This document shows, one piece after another, positions 469 through 56,208 of a stretch of 64,000 bases of DNA. Below the pieces are notes generated by a model that saw only the letters and a program-made list of their open reading frames with translations, was not told the DNA's origin and searched no databases. Source of the stretch: an uncultured Alphaproteobacteria bacterium (GTDB lineage: Bacteria > Pseudomonadota > Alphaproteobacteria > Micavibrionales > Micavibrionaceae); contig OY969717.1 of NCBI GenBank assembly GCA_963702155.1, forward strand, positions 657,563 to 721,562. Direction: 5' to 3'. Position numbers and translations under genes: made by a program. Positions within the stretch are counted from its first letter, which is position 1. Each line of letters starts with the position of its first letter.

Positions 469-1341
469 TCAAGAAGACTTTGCAATCTCGTAGGCAGACG
501 CTTTATGCCCCCATTCGCTCCATGAACCATCAAAAACCGAGATATTCTTATATTCTGCTTCATAAAAAGCCAGAAAAATAACACATGCGGTAATACCGCT
601 ACCACATGTCGCTATGATAGAATCCCCTTCATTGATACCAATATCTGAAATAATAGAATTCAAATTATCTTTTGATTTAAAAAATCCGGTATCAGATTGA
701 ATGAATATATCTGCTGGCACATTTATACTTTTTGGAATATGACCCGCACGCATATTTGCTCGTGGCTCTGGCACTTTACCTGAAAAACGGGCAGGGTTAC
801 GCGCATCTAAAATATGAAAACCATCCTTACCTATCGAATTTTCTACGTTTTTTATACCAATATAAAAGCTGGACTGAAAAACGGCGTTATATTTTTTTTG
901 TTGTATTGTGCTTTGAGCATCACTTGAAACAACAGGATATCCGGCCTTAACCCAAGCCGGCAAACCTCCATTAAGTATATAAACTTCCTCATGACCGAAT
1001 GTTTTAAACATCCACCAAGCCCGCGCAGCGCCCATTTTTATACCATCCTGACCATACACTATAACAGTATCTTCTCGCGAAATACCCTTAGCTCCGACAT
1101 AATAACTAAAATGGTCTGCGTCAGGTAAAGTATTTGGAAAAACCGAATTTGGATCCGAAGCAGCGCGAATATCAAAATAGCGCGCATCTTTTATATGTGC
1201 GTTTTGATAAACGGCAAATGCATCTTTCCCTTGATTGGGCAAAACAAAGCTTGCATCTAGGACAACAAACCGGCCTCTATTTAAAGAGCCAGAAGATAAC
1301 ATCGAATGAAGTTTCTGCGGTGATAATAAAACACTACGCAT
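469..1341 (-). CDS. sseA: 3-mercaptopyruvate/thiosulfate sulfurtransferase (tandem rhodanese domains)
   Basis: 290-aa ORF with two rhodanese-like halves. Active-site loop CGSGITAC matches the CG[ST]GVT motif of 3-MST. Confidence 0.85.
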   Translation of the reverse strand: MRSVLLSPQKLHSMLSSGSLNRGRFVVLDASFVLPNQGKDAFAVYQNAHIKDARYFDIRAASDPNSVFPNTLPDADHFSYYVGAKGISREDTVIVYGQDGIKMGAARAWWMFKTFGHEEVYILNGGLPAWVKAGYPVVSSDAQSTIQQKKYNAVFQSSFYIGIKNVENSIGKDGFHILDARNPARFSGKVPEPRANMRAGHIPKSINVPADIFIQSDTGFFKSKDNLNSIISDIGINEGDSIIATCGSGITACVIFLAFYEAEYKNISVFDGSWSEWGHKASAYEIAKSS

Positions 1342-1406
1342 TAAAAAGTCCTTATAATATATATAAAAATTCGAAGTAAAAGCGGTTTTTCACACTACTA
1401 TATCAG

Positions 1407-1440
1407 TAAAAAAAGCCTGAAACAAAGTCAGGCTTTTCTT
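1407..1440 (-). terminator. Rho-independent terminator downstream of the 1458..1949 gene
   Basis: Hairpin AGCCTGA/TCAGGCT (1414-1434), flanked by an A-run on plus, which is a T-run on minus. Confidence 0.6.
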
Positions 1441-1457
1441 GAAAAAATATTAAAAAA

Positions 1458-1949
1458 TTATGCGGCTATGTTATAAGCATCTTCACGATTAAATATATCT
1501 TTAACTCTATCTTTTTGCTCATCATTATTAGTATCAACAGCTATAAGAATAGATCCGTTTTTGATCTCGTCTTCATAAATTTTTGCTTCATGTTCTGGAA
1601 TGCCGGCACCAACCATTGCGCCAACTAATCCACCTGCTGCTGCACCAGCTCCAAGACCCGCCAAGGCAGAAACTATAGAGCCAACAACAACAATATTTAG
1701 ACCAGGAATAGTCATTGCAGTAGCGGTAGACAGAGCACCAATAATTGCACCTATAACACCGCCAACAGTCGCGCCTGTGGCCGCACCTTCTGGCATTTTA
1801 CTTTCTTCTTCAATATTAAAACTTTTCCCGCGCGTCTCATCAGTCATGATAATACTGATTTGCTCATCAGTAATTCCAATAGCTTCAAGCTGATTTAATG
1901 TGCTCTCTGCCGCTAATTTTGTTTTAAATGTAGCTGTAACGTTTGACAT
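1458..1949 (-). CDS. General-stress-type membrane protein with a glycine-zipper C-terminal half
   Basis: 163 aa. Gly/Ala-rich hydrophobic segment (GAATGATVGGVIGAIIGAL...GAGAAAGGLVGAMVGAG) typical of glycine-zipper stress proteins. Confidence 0.6.
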   Translation of the reverse strand: MSNVTATFKTKLAAESTLNQLEAIGITDEQISIIMTDETRGKSFNIEEESKMPEGAATGATVGGVIGAIIGALSTATAMTIPGLNIVVVGSIVSALAGLGAGAAAGGLVGAMVGAGIPEHEAKIYEDEIKNGSILIAVDTNNDEQKDRVKDIFNREDAYNIAA

Positions 1950-2174: not shown

Positions 2175-3407
2175 ATGAACATCTATTTTTTCAGTTTATT
2201 AATTATCGGCATTTCAGGGTTGGGAATGACGTGGATACCCGCATTGGCAAAAAAGATATGTATATCTTATTCTCTCGTATTTGTAGCTTTCGGCATGTTG
2301 ATTTACTTGGTTTTTCCGGATTTGAATTGGCCGGACCCTCTAAAAGATACAAAACTTACATTACATTTTACTGAAATAATTGTGATCATTGCGATCATGG
2401 GAACAGGGCTGAAAATTGACCGCGCGCTATCTTTTAAAAAATGGCGCGCCCCTTTGCAGCTTTTAACGATCACAATGTTTTTAAATATTACAGCCATAGC
2501 AGCTATTTCTCATTTTATGTTAGGGTTTGATATAGCATCATCTATTTTGTTAGGCGCTGTTTTATCGCCTACTGATCCCGTGCTTGCAGGTGATGTGCAG
2601 GTTGATGAACCCAACAAAGGCAAAAGCGATGACGTAAAGTTCTCACTTACTGCCGAAGCTGGCATGAATGATGGGCTGGCCTTTCCTTTTGTTTGGCTTG
2701 CTATATTAATTTTAGGAATATCTACAAATAATGATTGGGCCATCGAATGGTTAGGCTTTTACATTATTTATAAAATTATCTGCGGGATAATACTCGGTTT
2801 TATAGCCGGTAAAATTGTAACATATTTGTTTTTCAAACTTCCTGAAAAACATAATATGTTGCATGTACGTGATGGCCTCGTCGCTTTATCGGCAACCCTT
2901 TTTGTTTATGGCGCTACAGAACTTTTACATGGGTATGGGTTCATAGCCGTCTTTGTAACAGCCTTAACAATAAGAAACTACGAACAAGATCACGAATATC
3001 ATGCAAAACTGCACTCTTTCACAGATCAAATAGAACGTGTTTTGCTAGCCGTTCTTCTTATTATATTTGGAGCAATAGTATTAGATGGCGTTCTTGCACC
3101 TTTAACATGGCCTATGATTGGTTTATCCATAGCAGCAATTTTTTTAATCAGGCCAATTTTTGGCTATATTGGACTAATAGGAACCGCTGTAAAAGAAAGC
3201 CATAAGAAAGCTATCGGTTTTTTAGGCATACGTGGCGTAGGGTCCTTATTCTATCTTACATACGGATTGGAAAAAGGTAATTTTATGTATGCACCCGAAT
3301 TATGGGCTATAACGGCATTGACCATCCTAGCATCCATATTTATACACGGTATGAGTGCGCCTTTGATAGTAAGATATTTAAATGTAGATAAAGATAATAA
3401 TGTTTAA
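2175..3407 (+). CDS. Na+/H+ (cation:proton) antiporter, CPA1-like
   Basis: 410 aa, about 11-12 hydrophobic segments, with an SPTDPV motif typical of Na+/H+ exchanger family proteins. Confidence 0.8.
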   Translation: MNIYFFSLLIIGISGLGMTWIPALAKKICISYSLVFVAFGMLIYLVFPDLNWPDPLKDTKLTLHFTEIIVIIAIMGTGLKIDRALSFKKWRAPLQLLTITMFLNITAIAAISHFMLGFDIASSILLGAVLSPTDPVLAGDVQVDEPNKGKSDDVKFSLTAEAGMNDGLAFPFVWLAILILGISTNNDWAIEWLGFYIIYKIICGIILGFIAGKIVTYLFFKLPEKHNMLHVRDGLVALSATLFVYGATELLHGYGFIAVFVTALTIRNYEQDHEYHAKLHSFTDQIERVLLAVLLIIFGAIVLDGVLAPLTWPMIGLSIAAIFLIRPIFGYIGLIGTAVKESHKKAIGFLGIRGVGSLFYLTYGLEKGNFMYAPELWAITALTILASIFIHGMSAPLIVRYLNVDKDNNV

Positions 3408-3598
3408 AATTATACAAAACATTGAGCAAACACATTTGATATCGGGTTAAATTTGGCAAGGAACTTGCTCGCTACACGTACTTATTCTTTATCAATATCT
3501 TGCGGATCAAAAAAACCATGATCTTAAAACTGGGCTAAGCTATAAAGGCAGGTCAAATTATCATAGAAAATAGTTGATATAAGTTAAATTTAATTAAT

Positions 3599-52113: not shown

Positions 52114-52362
52114 ATGACCGATAATCAAGAGCCGTCATTACAACATACAGTCCGGTGCAAAGCCATGCATGCCAATATTGAGGCCATGGAATACATCGTT
52201 AATAATCTACTCATCCAAATCAAGGCCGCACACGAGAAAGCCCTCTATAACAACAGTGAGGAAGCCATGACCGAATTGGCAAAAACAAAACCAACACTTG
52301 AAGCCATAGCCGCATTATACGAGGCCACAGATAAGCTGAATACAAACGTATTACAGTTTTAA
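52114..52362 (+). CDS. Hypothetical small helical protein
   Basis: 82-aa ORF after cassette 3, with RBS AAAGGAG. Confidence 0.5.
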   Translation: MTDNQEPSLQHTVRCKAMHANIEAMEYIVNNLLIQIKAAHEKALYNNSEEAMTELAKTKPTLEAIAALYEATDKLNTNVLQF

Positions 52363-53606
52363 TCCTCGCCGAATTCTTTTCCGGTCTCGGCATGCGTGGC
52401 CGTCTTGCCTGTGTGATCCTGCCAACGCTGCACAATCACATCCACATACTTCGGATCTAGCTCTATAAGCCGTGCGGAACGCCCTAGATTTTCAGCCGCA
52501 ATCATTGTGGTACCCGAGCCACCGAACGGATCCAGCACGATATCCTGTGTCTTTGATGAATTTTTTATAGCACGTTCCACCAACTCCACTGGCTTCATAG
52601 TGGGGTGAAGCGTCTGCAGATGCGGACGGTTGATATGCCAGATATCACTCTGGTCACGCGCACCGCACCAATAATGATCGTTGCCCTTACGCCAGCCATA
52701 TAAGATCGGCTCATATTGTTTGTGGTAATCAGACCAGCCAAGCGTGTAATGGTTCTTAGCCCAGACAATATGCGTGGAGACATAGCCGCCAGCCTCTTCA
52801 AATGAACGGTGGAGGTTATGCATCTCACTGCCAGCCATACAGATATACAGCGCACCCTTGGTGTATTCGATGGCCACGGCACATAGGTCGGATAAGAATT
52901 TACCAAACTCCGCACCGAGATTATCGTTCATAAGGTCACGGCCTTTGACCTTCTTACCCTTGGCACGGGCGCGAACCTCTTCGGTCTTACCGTAATCAAC
53001 ATTATATGGTGGGTCGGTAAAGCACATATCGGCCAGCTCTTCCGCACCGAACAACCGTTCGTAATCAGATTTCTTTGTGGAGTCACCGCATAATACTTTG
53101 TGCTTACCGCATATCCATATATCACCCAGACGAGAGACGGGGTTATCCGGTGGCTCTGGCGCGGTATCTTCTTCCTCGCGTGCCTGGTCGTCATCCTCTT
53201 CAGGATTGAGTAAGCCATCTATGAACGCTGCTTCCAACGCAGTGATGTCTATATCGAAGCCTTCCTCATCCAGATAGCCCAGCTCCTCTGCCAGTTTTTC
53301 TTCATCCCAGCCGGAGTTGAGTGCGATACTGTTGTCAGCAATAGTCAGAGCGCGCCGCTGGGCTTCGGTCAATCCTTTTAGGATGATCACAGGAAGCTCT
53401 TTATAGCCTATGTTTTGTGCCGCTTCTAAGCGACCGTGGCCAGCAATTATAATATTGTTCTCATCGATAAGGATCGGGTTATAGAAATCAAACTCAAGCA
53501 TCGACCGTTCAATCTGTTTGATTTGATCGGTGGGATGCGTCCGTGCGTTGTTATCGTAGGGGACGATCTCTTCAATGGGTCGGTACTCGACCTTCAATTT
53601 GTTCAT
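52359..53606 (-). CDS. ParB-like nuclease domain fused to an N6/N4 DNA methyltransferase
   Basis: N-terminal ParB/Srx box (ILIDENNIIIAGHGRLEAA). The MTase core has DPPYN and a C-terminal DPFGGSGTT. Confidence 0.88.
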   Translation of the reverse strand: MNKLKVEYRPIEEIVPYDNNARTHPTDQIKQIERSMLEFDFYNPILIDENNIIIAGHGRLEAAQNIGYKELPVIILKGLTEAQRRALTIADNSIALNSGWDEEKLAEELGYLDEEGFDIDITALEAAFIDGLLNPEEDDDQAREEEDTAPEPPDNPVSRLGDIWICGKHKVLCGDSTKKSDYERLFGAEELADMCFTDPPYNVDYGKTEEVRARAKGKKVKGRDLMNDNLGAEFGKFLSDLCAVAIEYTKGALYICMAGSEMHNLHRSFEEAGGYVSTHIVWAKNHYTLGWSDYHKQYEPILYGWRKGNDHYWCGARDQSDIWHINRPHLQTLHPTMKPVELVERAIKNSSKTQDIVLDPFGGSGTTMIAAENLGRSARLIELDPKYVDVIVQRWQDHTGKTATHAETGKEFGED

Positions 53607-53832
53607 ACTGGCCTCTATTACGTGAAGTGTGTGCGAATTATTTTTCGTAACGAAATAAAAAAGGTACTGTGACGCGCCGACGTAAAGGGGCGGCGAACGC
53701 GCGATATTTATTTAGCGACAGGGTTGCCAACTTGGTTGCGGTAACATGGTTTCGGTGGTCGCAAGCATTTGATTTATTTACACAATCACCGAAACGAAAC
53801 CGCCGCTTGGTTTCGGTGCTTATGATCCGGCT

Positions 53833-55122
53833 TCATCGGCAATGCAGAGAAGCGTATAAAGTTCGAAACGCATACGCTGCCACCAGTGGCACCACGCCAT
53901 TTCCACAGAGCCGAAGTCTGTCCACCCGAAAGGCCATCCCATCAGCCATTCGGTGAACAGCGGGTTTAAGCGCATATCCGATATCTTCCCATCTTTCATG
54001 GTTGCTGGGAGATGGTGGCCAGACTGGAATGCCAAGGTCGGAAGCGATATCTGCTGTGTTTTCCGTGGCTTCATCCCGGGGCTGTCTTTCCAATCCCGAG
54101 CGCACGGTGTCGGCCATGCCTTGGCTTGCGCCGTCAATGAGCTGTGAGCCTGATTTGTCCGGTCGTCCATCCGTTTCAGAAATGTTTCCTGTTTCTCGCC
54201 GCTTTCTTGCGCCCGCGGGGTCAGCCATTGTTTCGCTGTTTCCGCAAGGCCGTTGCTGAAATTCGCGCTGGTCGATCCTGGTTCCTGCGCTCTGGGTGTT
54301 GGCCAGTTGATTTTCGCCGTCTTGTATTTCTGGCCGGTTTGTTTCTTCTGCAGATCCTGTTTCGTATAAGGAAAATCCTTCGGTTGCATAACAGTCTCTG
54401 CCAGCGATGGTGTCCGCAGTACGTTGCGCCCATCTTTCCGGATCATCTTTTCCGGTGGTCTGGCTTTGTTGGTATTCGCATCGGTCGCCGTCACCGTCGG
54501 CCACATATGCCGGACTTGATCTCGAAGCATCAGCGGCATGTTCGCTTCCATCTTTTCCTTGAATTTTTGAGGACTTAGACATCCGCCCGTTGCCTCGGTC
54601 GCTTTCACGGTGCGCCATAATGAAGAGCCGTTCACGTTTATGCGTTGCACCGACTTCTTCCGCTGTAAACAAGCCCGCCGCAACGCTGTAACCCATTGAT
54701 CGTAAGTCGTCGTGGACTTGCTGAAAGCCCAAACGTAAATGGTGAGAGACGTTTTCAAAGAAACAGAGTTCCGGCTGGATTGCGGCGACAATGTCTTTGA
54801 TATAAGGCCAGAGATGCCGTGGGTCTTTTTCCCCGCGCTTGACTCCGGCGATTGAGAACGGCTGGCACGGATATCCTGCAGTGAGGATATCCACGCATCC
54901 GCGCCACGGTTTTGGATCGAAGGTCTTAACGTCAGACCAGATAGGTGCGGCATCCATGGTTTCATCTTCCATGCGCGCTGCAAGCTGCGCGGCAGCATAG
55001 GCTTCCCCCTCGACATAACAAACGGTTCTTGCTTCAGGCACTCCGAGCTTAACGCCGAGTTCGAGTCCGCCCGCACCGGAACAGAGGGACAGCACTGTTG
55101 GGGTATATGGATCCACATTCAA
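53833..55122 (-). CDS. DNA (cytosine-5) methyltransferase
   Basis: Motifs LCSGAGG (I), GYPCQPFS (IV), ENV (VI), RERLFI (VIII) and GNGVVP (X) all lie in this frame. A second, fully overlapping 432-codon ORF exists (see findings). Confidence 0.8.
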   Translation of the reverse strand: MNVDPYTPTVLSLCSGAGGLELGVKLGVPEARTVCYVEGEAYAAAQLAARMEDETMDAAPIWSDVKTFDPKPWRGCVDILTAGYPCQPFSIAGVKRGEKDPRHLWPYIKDIVAAIQPELCFFENVSHHLRLGFQQVHDDLRSMGYSVAAGLFTAEEVGATHKRERLFIMAHRESDRGNGRMSKSSKIQGKDGSEHAADASRSSPAYVADGDGDRCEYQQSQTTGKDDPERWAQRTADTIAGRDCYATEGFSLYETGSAEETNRPEIQDGENQLANTQSAGTRIDQREFQQRPCGNSETMADPAGARKRRETGNISETDGRPDKSGSQLIDGASQGMADTVRSGLERQPRDEATENTADIASDLGIPVWPPSPSNHERWEDIGYALKPAVHRMADGMAFRVDRLRLCGNGVVPLVAAYAFRTLYASLHCR

Positions 55123-55150: not shown

Positions 55151-55648
55151 TTAAACGACCGCAGGTTTTTTCCATTGAAGAGAATCTTCATCGAACCTGT
55201 ATGCAAAACCAAAGTGTCGCTTACAGCATTGCCGTATTTCAGTTACAGTAGCTTTGCCCCAATTTGGCAGAAGTAATAAGTCTGCATCGTTCAAATCCAA
55301 AACTTCATTCAAATTTTTGACACCAATGGATAAAAAGGAATTTACAGTTCTAGTTGAGAGATCAAGGTAGCGGATAGACAAATCAGGAATTCCCTGACTA
55401 TCTATCGTTTCACCGTCGTGAGCTTCAATATGAGCTTCAACATGTGCCGTCATATCTTTTTGATGTTGAACGAGCTTTTTGAGTTGTTTGTTTTCAAAAC
55501 GTAATTTCCAACTATGCTTCACGATGATTGTTTTTATTCTACCCGGGGATAGGTCAAAGCGTTTGGCAAGATCACTAAAACCCACACGCTCGTTAAGCCA
55601 GATATCGAATATTTTCTCGTTTCTTTCTTCTTTTTCAGGATCACGCAT
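55151..55648 (-). CDS. Mor/C-like HTH activator fused to an RNA polymerase alpha-CTD-like domain
   Basis: The N-terminus ERNEKIFDIW..GFSDLAKRFDLSPGRIKTII is Mor-like. The C-terminus LDLSTRTVNSFLSIGVKNLNEVLDLNDADLLLLPNWGKATVTEI parallels E. coli RpoA CTD [44 protein letters not shown]. Confidence 0.65.
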   Translation of the reverse strand: MRDPEKEERNEKIFDIWLNERVGFSDLAKRFDLSPGRIKTIIVKHSWKLRFENKQLKKLVQHQKDMTAHVEAHIEAHDGETIDSQGIPDLSIRYLDLSTRTVNSFLSIGVKNLNEVLDLNDADLLLLPNWGKATVTEIRQCCKRHFGFAYRFDEDSLQWKKPAVV

Positions 55649-55662
55649 CTTTCCTACCTGCG

Positions 55663-56208
55663 TTAAATTGGTTTTTTCGTGAGTTCGGCCAGAGCTTTGT
55701 TAAGTTCTTCCTGCAATTTTTTATGAATCTCCGCAGCATCGTTAAGGCTTGCCAATACAGGAGCCAAACGGTCAGGGATATTGAGAATATTGTCGCGTAC
55801 AGTGCGTGCCTGCTTAAACGCTGCGGCACGGACTTCATCCACATCCACGTATTTGCCGCCTTCAACTTTAGCTTTGATTTCCAGTAATTTTGCTTTTTCA
55901 CTTTCACTTTTGATCCGTGTTTTGAGAAGCAGTGTTGGCAGTTGTGAATCTGATAGTGGGCGTGGCGCGGACACATTGACCGCCGCGCTCTCAATCGCAT
56001 TTTCTGCTTTTCGGTCTTGATGTGTTTGTCTTGCGGGTTCGCGCCGCGCTTCCAATATGGCATCGGCCTGTACTGGATCGATCTTGTCATTAATCGTAGG
56101 AATAACACCTTCTCTGATAAGCCGACCGATATACTGGCGAGAAACGCCGCGTTGCTCTCCGTAATCGGTGCGCGTCAGGAGCTGTTTTTTCTTTGATTTT
56201 TTGGCCAT
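55663..56208 (-). CDS. Putative terminase small subunit (Nu1-like HTH protein)
   Basis: N-terminal HTH (LTRTDYGEQRGVSRQYIGRLIREGVIP) and a coiled-coil C-terminal region resembling small terminases. Confidence 0.5.
   Translation of the reverse strand: MAKKSKKKQLLTRTDYGEQRGVSRQYIGRLIREGVIPTINDKIDPVQADAILEARREPARQTHQDRKAENAIESAAVNVSAPRPLSDSQLPTLLLKTRIKSESEKAKLLEIKAKVEGGKYVDVDEVRAAAFKQARTVRDNILNIPDRLAPVLASLNDAAEIHKKLQEELNKALAELTKKPI

Follow-up and report, generated by a model that had tools for sequence, protein, structure and literature searches.

A cytosine methyltransferase locus with two co-extensive reading frames that probably encode two subunits

The locus described here, a 1.3-kb prophage gene on the minus strand of a 64,000-nucleotide stretch of DNA (the window), probably encodes a two-subunit C5-cytosine DNA methyltransferase whose chains are read from two co-extensive frames of one mRNA. 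Frame A would provide an α subunit made up of the catalytic large domain (motifs I–VIII), a disordered linker of ~185 residues and a C-terminal module with WPPxP...W and motif X. Frame B would provide a β subunit that begins at a separate ATG, lying 2 nt before the α GTG (ATGTGG), and runs through a short MW(L/I)Y(L/I)P motif and ~165 largely unconstrained residues over the catalytic core into a small domain, which comprises a WPTP-repeat recognition region and motif IX. By analogy with M.EcoHK31I, α and β would assemble into the complete enzyme; both products are presumably made, in a ratio that initiation at the shared start region may set. Direct support comes from the openness of both frames, the alternation of selection between them, the conserved β start and N-terminus, and the absence of frameshift signals.

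In bacteria and phages, long overlaps between genes on the same strand are rare, and claims of them are often met with doubt. The comparative evidence for a long overlap is strong here: purifying selection alternates between the frames, stop codons are actively avoided and a second start is conserved. If the gene is translated in both frames over its whole length, it would rank among the longest and most widely distributed dual-coding genes conserved on one strand in prokaryotes, and its specificity-determining domain would sit in a frame left out of most annotations. The usual annotation in cultured phage genomes is a single methyltransferase; frame B is otherwise entered as “hypothetical”, “Mte8-like” or a second methyltransferase. 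Clustered at 50% identity, the family comprises at least 3,000 clusters; the two-frame layout appears, from sequence, to be shared by thousands of related phage genes for which only one frame is usually annotated. Specificity prediction or structure modelling from the annotated protein would mislead, because the middle of A is a shadow and the recognition domain lies in frame B. The family would also offer many natural split methyltransferases for targeted-methylation engineering, as done with M.EcoHK31I, and a tractable system for dual initiation at adjacent start codons, since relatives occur in phages of E. coli K1, Klebsiella and Salmonella.

Two open frames and their stop avoidance

The two reading frames are laid out as follows.

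53833..55122, minus strand: frame A open reading frame (α), 429 codons from TTG 55122, likely start GTG 55116
53820..55118, minus strand: frame B open reading frame (β), 432 codons from ATG, in the +1 frame relative to A

Both had been placed at these coordinates by the original prediction, in agreement with the open reading frame listing, and each is without stops over ~430 codons. The peptides named there are all present, in frame A LCSGAGG, GYPCQPFS, ENV, RERLFI and RVDRLRLCGNGVVP, and in frame B LWRTVKATEATGG, MWPTVTATDANTN, NWPTPRAQEPGST, QWLTPRAQESGEK, AWPTPCARDWKDS and RLNPLFTEWLMGWPFGWTD; the (L/M)A(D/N)(T/P) strings of frame A are indeed one-nucleotide shadows of W-P-T-P codons. The database protein P0001 starts at the GTG of frame A.

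Frame A has 5398 homologues, with full-length coverage in most among the matches listed, and 659 homologues are called in frame B, with query coverage >80% in most among the matches listed. A frame B profile matches 31,277 cluster representatives, of which 3,030 reach E ≤ 1e-30; in most, the protein begins with the conserved B start codon. Frame B has no match in Pfam or NCBIfam, and its profile gave a single chance match only against PDB sequences. Relatives of the locus were seen in Micavibrio-like and other Alphaproteobacteria. Megablast detected no match to the locus among phage records or complete E. coli genomes, nor did the E. coli phage homologue match E. coli genomes. Literature searches with motif strings, “Mte8” included, returned no description of a two-frame methyltransferase family.

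That a second frame would stay open this long by chance had been judged unlikely, and permutation tests bear this out (P ≤ 0.0004). The protein of one frame was kept while its codons were redrawn from window codon usage or shuffled synonymously within the gene. With the A protein kept, redrawing from window usage gives an expectation of 9.0 stops in the +1 frame and none of 5000 redraws was stop-free, and the within-gene shuffle gives 5.7 expected stops (P = 0.0004). With the B protein kept, 19.3 or 12.4 frame A stops are expected, and again 0/5000 sequences were stop-free. The +1 frame of other long open reading frames in the window carries ~4 stops per 100 codons.

The openness is a property of the family. 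Of 162 loci with a GC content of 0.46–0.72, nearly all have a +1 frame that is stop-free over 90% of A or more; the open +2 frame covers 0.1–0.6 of A. An open reading frame in the +1 alternative frame, on the same strand and within the α gene, is kept in ~150 of 164 loci. Codon usage in frame A is reshaped so that TGA is avoided in the +1 frame: an NTG codon is followed by an A-initial codon in 0 of 618 cases, against 1015 of 3884 in flanking open reading frames, and CTC and GTC are favoured over CTG and GTG. By comparison, 33 single-chain relatives have a mean of 9.2 stops in the +1 frame, and none is open. Three explanations had been offered at the outset. Openness forced by the repeat structure is ruled out by the permutation tests and the single-chain controls, a protein that passes from A to B to A is disfavoured for the reasons given below, and an overlapping, dual-coding gene is the option that stands.

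Selection along the gene

Selection was mapped by codon-position variability in 83 non-redundant homologous loci. Purifying selection is seen in both frames and alternates between them, acting on A in codons 1–170, B in 175–360, A in 365–380, B in 381–400 and A in 401–429. AF2 confidence tracks this mosaic, with α 1–176 and 410–427 and β 171–270 modelled confidently, α 177–360 disordered and β 1–170 not confident. Judged by its motifs, neither frame is a complete enzyme, as A has motifs I–VIII and X only and B has the putative recognition repeats and motif IX. Each frame shows homology to successive portions of the single-chain enzymes.

The 5′ part of the gene combines the catalytic region in A with a passenger segment in B.

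54595..55098, minus strand: α large-domain part with motifs I–VIII, A residues 9–176, marked by a PF00145 match and third-position variability
55066-55086, 54853-54876, 54748-54756 and 54619-54636, minus strand: α motifs LCSGAGG, GYPCQPFS, ENV and RERLFI, respectively
54609..55100, minus strand: β N-terminal passenger, B residues 7–170, overlapping the α catalytic core and kept open

The C5-methyltransferase core, with motifs I (FxGxG), IV (PCQ), VI (ENV) and VIII (RxR) in one chain, is present in frame A, which matches PF00145 with E = 1.4e-31 (residues 9–221, profile positions 2–213 of 324). Frame A third positions are the most variable throughout the large-domain stretch, where AF2 pLDDT is mostly 70–96. 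Foldseek matches α to M.HaeIII and M.HhaI (1dct, 2uz4) over ~170 columns; frame A aligns with both enzymes in sequence, and homology to solved enzymes stops at residue 173.

In the β passenger variability peaks at the B second position, which is the A third, constraint is limited to scattered residues, and pLDDT is mostly <50; most of β residues 1–170 show no amino-acid-level selection. Some A third positions are nevertheless fixed for a B residue, e.g., H128 (CAT, 82/82) and V77 (GTG, 82/82). Even the passenger parts may carry some dual constraint. An “NTG codon” test was circular, the search having been conditioned on W in frame B; it serves only to show that the frame A residue varies (V/L/M) where the frame B W is fixed. 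Because residue-level selection is slight and the AF2 fold poor, the case for translation of β 1–170 is built on the avoidance of stops together with the conserved start and N-terminal motif.

In the middle of the gene the roles are exchanged.

54039..54608, minus strand: β recognition-domain region, B residues 171–360, with W-P-T-P-x-A-x-D/E repeats
54468-54506, 54270-54308, 54192-54230 and 54081-54119, minus strand: W-P-T-P-x-A-x-D/E repeats in frame B
54043..54594, minus strand: α passenger linker, A residues 177–360, a low-complexity shadow of the β repeats

Here the B third position is the most variable and the B second the least, and identity in the middle region is 0.55–0.66 for B vs 0.29–0.41 for A. 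AF2 gives pLDDT 73–96 for β residues 171–270; Foldseek found no significant match for the β model, whose confidence is low overall. A tblastn search matches phage cytosine-methylase genes in their +1 frame. The original suggestion that WPTP..A.D repeats and an EWLMG.P.GWT box are features of phage cytosine methylases is borne out. The α linker has many indels and pLDDT 26–41 along with its low identity, and is kept stop-free against an expectation of 3.2 stops across loci and 5.2 for the window. Frame A has no recognisable recognition domain or motif IX.

Towards the 3′ end, selection changes frame within short distances.

53989..54021, minus strand: α segment WPPSPSNHERW, A residues 368–378, frame-A-selected between two frame-B-selected stretches
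53916..53972, minus strand: β motif IX RLNPLFTEWLMGWPFGWTD, B residues 383–401, with the frame A shadow HRMADGMAFRVD
53857..53919, minus strand: α motif X and C-terminal helix RLRLCGNGVVPLVAAYAFRTL, A residues 402–422, under frame A selection
53823..53915, minus strand: β C-terminal tail, B residues 402–432, overlapping α motif X

Within the first of these segments A third positions are the most variable and identity is 0.59–0.69 in A and 0.40–0.44 in B; P369, P372 and W378 are invariant in A1 and 99–100% conserved in the 83 loci. Frame A third positions are then fixed across motif IX, so that the B residues P, E, L, M, G, P and T are identical in 83/83 loci (G in 76 and W in 82). This motif aligns by hhalign with motif IX of single-chain enzymes (probability 95%, E = 1.8e-8), and homologous motifs IX, encoded in frame, occur in 350 Mycobacterium phage records and others. 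Judged by this homology, the gene is not a case of de novo overprinting, because the small domain that single-chain methyltransferases encode in frame is a homologue of the frame B part.

Motif X of α returns to an A identity of 0.88–0.99 with A third positions the most variable, and the α helix 410–427 has pLDDT 81–92. In the β tail AF2 predicts a helix at 405–431 (pLDDT 80–87), and A third positions are fixed at L413 (NTG), R420 (NGA) and T421 (ACT). The B stop lies 13–16 nt past the A stop in 56 of 83 loci; in the locus L054, β ends directly after motif IX. A likeness between α RVDRLR and single-chain SRNDQLR, considered as evidence that both overlapping motifs function, was dropped because the GWT codons fully force RVD.

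Start region and competing explanations

Two further features lie at the extreme 5′ end.

55113..55118, minus strand: overlapping start ATGTGG, B ATG at 55118-55116 and A GTG at 55116-55114
55101..55118, minus strand: β N-terminal motif MWIHIP, family consensus M(x)W-[LI]-Y-[LIVF]-P

A B-frame start beside the A start is present in 82 of the 83 non-redundant loci, 18 with NTG-TGG and 64 with ATG-xxx-TGG. The W and P of the N-terminal motif are present in 82/82 loci. Its variation falls on B third positions (~1.4 bits), with none on the B second positions of hydrophobic codons, and the frame A reading of the same bases is not conserved. This third-position wobble shows, at the level of sequence comparison, that the W-L-Y-L-P motif is selected in frame B. 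No recognisable Shine-Dalgarno sequence lies upstream of ATGTGG in the window.

These observations bear on where β begins. Two subunits could be made with β initiated solely within the gene, ahead of the recognition region, so that the first 100–165 B codons are untranslated and their openness is incidental or serves another purpose. We think this unlikely, although the N-terminal part of β does vary in the manner of frame A and is modelled by AF2 with low confidence, Paenibacillus phage Bloom (12 nt after GGGAGG) and E. coli phage fKuEco01 have internal β starts, and the β of M.EcoHK31I likewise lies inside α (PMC2836561). An untranslated N-terminal region fits poorly with the absence of any +1 stop from the first 166 codons in all 80 loci tested, where P(0) averages 0.44 per locus and is 0.003–0.04 in low-GC loci, and with the complete lack of NTG-A pairs. 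The start codon and W-L-Y-L-P are also conserved at the extreme 5′ end with frame-B wobble, and it is at this motif that called B-frame proteins start. The fullest form of the two-subunit reading is that the whole ~1.3 kb is translated in two frames across a very large phage and prophage family, the ancestral small domain having been displaced into the +1 frame and near-coincident starts (AUGUG-type, or ATG-N-ATG coupled to an upstream stop) giving both subunits at a single initiation region; on this extended claim we are evenly divided.

Alternatively, ribosomes could join the frames into a single polypeptide through programmed frameshifts at two places, a +1 shift behind motif VIII and a −1 shift behind motif IX, restoring the order I–VIII, recognition domain, IX, X. 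The coarse selection pattern is indeed A-B-A, and a conceptual A-B-A chimera, proposed earlier as a search query, is collinear with single-chain actinophage enzymes and aligns end to end with Mycobacterium phage Moonbeam gp69 (E = 7e-37). We nevertheless regard such a product as improbable. Its passenger segments would be free to gain stops, yet none accumulate, and the conserved B start and N-terminal motif would be left without a role. An X_XXY_YYZ heptamer occurs near junction 2 (upstream of GNG) in 0/83 loci, homopolymers after motif VIII reach at most 3–5 nt, and junction 1 falls in an indel-rich stretch. Four shifts, not two, would be needed because the A-selected codons 365–380 sit between B-selected segments, and in the loci L089 and L104 the bases of a B repeat, WPTATATD, also encode the conserved A residues (F)ILAY. 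The called protein P0199, which joins frame A up to ENV to frame B, was considered as a natural fusion and rejected; it is without motif VIII and comes from a single contig, so probably reflects an indel and is uninformative.

A split resembling that of M.AquI is also conceivable, with α limited to motifs I–VIII and β extended by a −1 shift after motif IX into X (recognition domain, IX and X), as the M.AquI split takes this form (PMC3404938). The sub-clade L033/L047/L091 could be read in this way, since its α is in two pieces, broken after motif VIII by a linker region with 8, 14 and 4 stops, with motif X still conserved in frame A downstream. Alpha continuity is thus not strictly required, as α is interrupted in these three loci. 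Frame A reopens there exactly 3 codons ahead of a conserved ATG, which lies ~66 codons 5′ of GNG and 7 nt after GAAGG/GAGGG, and this position fits internal initiation over a shift at the IX/X junction. Like L054 and the phages with internal β starts, these loci are natural variants that count in favour of two separate subunits. A slippery site is absent and the continuity of α in ~150 other loci is not accounted for, so that we give this scheme very little weight. Finally, it is scarcely credible that frame B is untranslated and owes its openness and motifs to codon bias, GC content or frame A repeats, for although long alternative open reading frames are common in high-GC genes and many loci have a GC content of 0.65–0.70, the openness holds at GC 0.46–0.50 and in the permutations, single-chain relatives of equal GC have ~9 stops, and in the middle region and motif IX it is B that is better conserved, with its third position the most variable in the former and its invariant residues fixing frame A synonymous sites in the latter.

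Comparison with known systems

Programmed frameshift genes such as dnaX, IS3-type transposases and the phage tail chaperones G/GT use one mRNA for two frames; they have a conserved slippery site, usually with a stimulator, and their alternative frame is open only downstream of the shift. The present locus has no slippery site, and both of its frames run without stops between a common start region and a common end. Like overprinted viral genes, it has a long same-strand overlap in which selection is traded between frames. Unlike de novo overprinted viral genes, the coding part of frame B appears to be an ancestral small domain, and only the passenger segments would be “new”.

Single-chain actinophage enzymes such as Moonbeam gp69 share the catalytic core (GYPCQPFS, DxRHxWP, APHxRER), LLPTP.A.D-type repeats, the L.P.F.EWMMGWP.GW motif IX and the GNGVVP motif X. 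All of these motifs lie in one frame in the single-chain enzymes, with ~9 stops in the +1 frame. Motifs IX and X are ~14 residues apart in those proteins, while here they occupy overlapping or adjacent bases in different frames.

Natural division of a C5-methyltransferase into two polypeptides that reassemble is known from M.AquI (CYCGRG), which is cut once in the variable region to place motifs I–VIII on one chain and the rest of the variable region with motifs IX–X on the other (PMC3404938). In the present locus motif X would remain with α, the catalytic subunit, and the two frames overlap along the entire gene.

The one characterised precedent for a two-frame split layout is M.EcoHK31I (E. 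coli HK31, YGGCCR), a heterodimeric C5-methyltransferase whose β is encoded in another frame inside the α gene; both chains are required, and they are functional when expressed from separate genes (PMC2836561; PMC3404938). As in that enzyme, the second open reading frame lies in an alternative frame on the same strand within the α gene, and in described layout α has motifs I–VIII and X while β has motif IX. The β gene of M.EcoHK31I is smaller and wholly inside that of α, whereas here the two open reading frames (429 and 432 codons) start 2–4 nt apart and are co-extensive. The recognition domain of M.EcoHK31I is assigned to α, while the recognition repeats here are in β and the middle of α is an unconstrained shadow. 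The present genes are also phage or prophage borne and form a very large family. As predicted from sequence, then, the layout differs from that of M.EcoHK31I in its co-extensive open reading frames and in carrying the putative recognition domain on β.

Two open frames at the methyltransferase locus

The locus consists of two open reading frames on the minus strand:

53833..55122 (-): ORF A, 429 codons, read in frame A
53820..55118 (-): ORF B, 432 codons, in the +1 frame of ORF A and overlapping it completely

All peptides quoted from these ORFs in the original prediction were found at their positions. The match of Pfam model PF00145 to frame A is confined to residues 9-221 (profile positions 2-213 of 324), similarity to the solved M.HhaI and M.HaeIII stops at residue 173, directly past motif VIII, and neither Pfam nor NCBIfam has a model that matches frame B. 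The claim that two such frames would hardly stay open by chance held when one protein was kept constant and its codons were redrawn 5000 times, using either the codon usage of the window or a within-gene shuffle. With protein A held, 9.0 stops were expected in the +1 frame under window codon usage (stop-free in 0/5000 redraws) and 5.7 under the shuffle (P = 0.0004); with protein B held, the two nulls gave 19.3 or 12.4 expected stops in frame A, which was stop-free in 0/5000. The +1 frame of the window's other long ORFs carries ~4 stops per 100 codons. Double openness by chance is ruled out.

The gene lies in a phage-type minus-strand module with the order helicase, Cas4-like exonuclease, primase, small terminase, two-frame gene, ParB-N6/N4 methyltransferase fusion, large terminase, portal and protease. 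Since a database protein identical to frame A is on a 2.33-Mb contig, and the closest relatives are in Micavibrio-like and other alphaproteobacterial genomes, this phage-type module is probably part of a prophage. Neighboring features are:

52359..53606 (-): directly downstream of the two-frame gene; a fusion protein of 415 aa that joins an N-terminal ParB-like nuclease domain to an N6/N4 DNA methyltransferase (match to phrog_498, E = 2.7e-153)
55663..56208 (-): small-terminase gene (phrog_57)
55641..56108 (-): 155-aa ORF in another frame, nearly all inside the small-terminase gene and possibly open by chance

With the fusion beside the two-frame gene, the putative prophage has two different methyltransferases between its small and large terminase genes.

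Family breadth and the mosaic of selection

Frame A has 5398 database homologues; their conservation is high over the first 170 residues and the final ~65 but poor in between, where the sequence is low-complexity and indel-rich. Gene finders have called 659 homologues in frame B, most with >80% query coverage among the matches listed, and an exhaustive search with the frame-B profile returned 31,277 cluster representatives (3,030 at E <= 1e-30), the majority of the best matches starting at the profile's first positions. Our set of 164 loci was made up of 160 drawn from GTDB genomes and viral contigs, with the window and three annotated phage loci added. A recognizable frame-A ORF is present in 162 (GC 0.46 to 0.72), and in nearly all of these the +1 frame stays open along 90% or more of frame A, compared with 0.1-0.6 for the +2 frame. 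The two-frame layout is a family trait, common to very distant phages: Acidovorax phage Alfacinha1 (where annotators picked frame B), Synechococcus phage Yong-M2-251, Paenibacillus phage Bloom (each frame annotated as a methyltransferase), low-GC phage C75C1 (~470 codons open in the +1 frame), and Escherichia phage vB_EcoS_fKuEco01 (frame B labelled 'Mte8-like'). The beta-type sequence (frame B) of this E. coli phage has matches in 222 phage records, among them phages of Escherichia, Klebsiella, Rhodobacter, Burkholderia, Salmonella and Xanthomonas. Cultured phage genomes mostly annotate the locus as one methyltransferase; in some Guernseyvirinae the frame-B ORF is annotated as a 'putative Mte8-like protein' or a second methyltransferase.

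L201, 802..1626 and 890..1582: locus of Escherichia phage vB_EcoS_fKuEco01; K1H and Salmonella phage W5 are similar annotation cases

Entropy per codon position, computed over 83 non-redundant loci, shows which frame is selected along the gene.

Table. Selection along the two-frame gene (A codons; most variable position; selected frame; mean pairwise identity)
1-170; A third; frame A; A 0.66-0.84, B 0.47-0.66
175-360; A first (= B third), least variable B second; frame B; B 0.55-0.66, A 0.29-0.41
365-380 (WPPxPxxxxxW); A third; frame A; A 0.59-0.69, B 0.40-0.44
381-400 (LNPLFTEWLMGWPxGWT); A first (= B third); frame B; B 0.80-0.90
401-429 (motif X); A third; frame A; A 0.88-0.99

Across codons 381-400, the B residues P, E, L, M, G, P and T are invariant in 83/83 loci (G in 76, W in 82) because frame-A third positions are fixed there, and the frame-A string RMADG.A.RVD is a mere shadow, or off-frame reading, of motif IX. 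In AF2 models, the putative frame-A product (alpha) is confident at residues 1-176 and 410-427, with pLDDT 26-41 for 177-360, and the putative frame-B product (beta) has pLDDT 73-96 for residues 171-270 and mostly <50 for 1-170; predicted confidence follows the same mosaic as selection.

The segments open in one frame while the other is under selection (passengers) stay open although they are not under selection at the protein level. In 80 loci chosen beforehand for open frames (~14 of the 164 failed this filter, several of them truncated or disrupted), none has a +1 stop in the first 166 codons (1.05 expected per locus; P(0) 0.003-0.04 in low-GC loci) or a frame-A stop in the middle (3.2 expected). 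The catalytic part of high-GC loci favors CTC/GTC (0.63/0.64) over CTG/GTG (0.21/0.23), whereas flanking genes show the opposite preference (0.29/0.42 vs 0.47/0.46). An NTG codon followed by an A-initial codon, which creates TGA in the +1 frame, occurs in 0/618 cases vs 1015/3884 in the flanks. As a matched control, 33 single-chain actinophage relatives (GC 0.46-0.71) average 9.2 stops in the +1 frame, which is open in 0/33. The redraw nulls and these single-chain relatives reject openness forced by the repeat structure, an explanation the original prediction had offered; the redraws also exclude codon bias.

With both frames free of stops, one indel at any point of the gene is enough to give a long open chimera, as shown by database protein P0199 (325 aa, 2.8-kb metagenome contig), which follows frame A to ENV and then frame B to its end. 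At locus L078 (~2400..3495), frame A breaks off past 'WPP' into unrelated transposase-like sequence, and the gene was probably disrupted by an insertion sequence.

Probable translation of the two frames

Frame B has its own conserved start. A B-frame start codon adjoins the A start in 82/83 loci, as NTG-TGG in 18, including the window (ATGTGG; B ATG 55118, A GTG 55116), and as ATG-N-ATG-xxx-TGG in 64. In E. coli, AUGUG and GUGUG sites are able to initiate both frames (PMC9841429). The B N-terminus reads W (82/82), L/I/M, Y (70/82), L/I/V/F, P (82/82) and varies only at B third positions (~1.4 bits), the frame-A reading of the same bases being free to vary. Within the catalytic core, several synonymous frame-A sites are fixed (for example H128 CAT, V77 GTG, V136 GTC and A154 GCG, each 82/82; E156 GAA, 80/83), some with codons otherwise in the minority in the gene. 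This keeps particular frame-B residues constant, so the N-terminal part of beta is not wholly free. In the high-GC group, the upstream gene's stop codon lies directly before both starts, which suggests termination-reinitiation coupling into both frames.

In high-GC loci such as L006-L031, the upstream TGA is 12 nt upstream of the B ATG (GTGACATGCATGACC or CTGAGGCGATGCATG), and GAGG spacing is better for the frame-B than the frame-A ATG; in the window, no clear Shine-Dalgarno sequence was found upstream of ATGTGG. In locus L057 the fifth B codon is TAG (ATG GCG TGG CTC TAG), and L015 has one stop (2228..2230) within the B recognition region; these rare exceptions could reflect gene decay, sequencing errors or readthrough.

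We consider it likely that the locus encodes two chains, alpha from frame A and beta from frame B with its own 5′ start, the form in which the dual-coding option of the original prediction stands. In this organism, both products would be made and associate, with the first 165 residues of beta translated and not just kept open. An internal beta start is seen in Bloom, 12 nt past GGGAGG, and in fKuEco01, yet the B start and N-terminal W..P motif conserved in 82 loci make it an unlikely rule for two subunits. A single chain produced by successive +1 and -1 frameshifts, the A-B-A option of the prediction, is improbable: it offers no reason for the open passengers, the conserved B start or the selected B N-terminus, and a slippery heptamer near the IX/X junction occurs in 0/83 loci. 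After motif VIII no homopolymer exceeds 5 nt, and the junction there falls in a stretch rich in indels. Since the A-selected WPPxP...W segment separates two B-selected stretches, a single chain would take four shifts, and in L089 and L104 the bases of the conserved A residues FILAY also encode WPTATATD, the first B repeat. Natural variants, with internal beta starts or an early beta stop, act like separate genes and also favor two chains over frameshifting. Less probable still is a fusion of beta to motif X, and an untranslated frame B is scarcely credible.

In L054, beta stops just past motif IX and alpha continues 175 residues to motif X. One sub-clade has enlarged recognition regions:

L033, 1432..3082
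L047, 1372..2962
L091, 1444..2775

Here, frame A carries 8, 14 and 4 stops in the passenger and reopens 3 codons before a conserved ATG (MGNAD...), which is preceded by GAAGG or GAGGG at 7 nt and lies ~66 codons before GNG, while frame B is open for 435-549 codons. From these stops and the restart, the enzyme is apparently in three pieces, with alpha split into N-terminal and C-terminal parts alongside beta.

Relation to single-chain enzymes and M.EcoHK31I

Motifs IX and X fall within one tblastn piece in 350 Mycobacterium phage records, and in Moonbeam gp69 one frame contains the catalytic core, LLPTP.A.D repeats, EWMMGWPAGW and GNGVVP. A conceptual chimera, A(1-171)+B+A(402-429), aligns end-to-end with gp69 (E = 7e-37), and profile comparison with the single-chain family matches the frame-A family to motifs I-VIII (E = 2e-36) and the frame-B family to motif IX (probability 95%, E = 1.8e-8). 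By these alignments, frame B is an ordinary methyltransferase small domain moved to another frame, not a new protein. Single-chain actinophage enzymes such as gp69 have all motifs in one frame and a +1 frame full of stops, whereas that frame is open here.

In the literature searched, no description of this methyltransferase family was found; the family is of high interest to researchers studying overlapping genes, restriction-modification or the annotation of phages. The kind of arrangement is already known from one enzyme, M.EcoHK31I, where beta (motif IX) has its coding sequence in another frame inside alpha (with motifs I-VIII as well as X), and methylation is regained with the genes on separate plasmids (PMC2836561; PMC3404938); C5 methyltransferases tolerate fragmentation (PMC3404938). 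Compared by layout, both systems place a second C5 methyltransferase subunit, here a predicted one, in another frame of the same gene. Unlike in M.EcoHK31I, the ORFs here are co-extensive with a common start region, beta holds the whole small domain including the recognition repeats, the middle of alpha is a shadow linker, and the arrangement marks a very large phage and prophage family.
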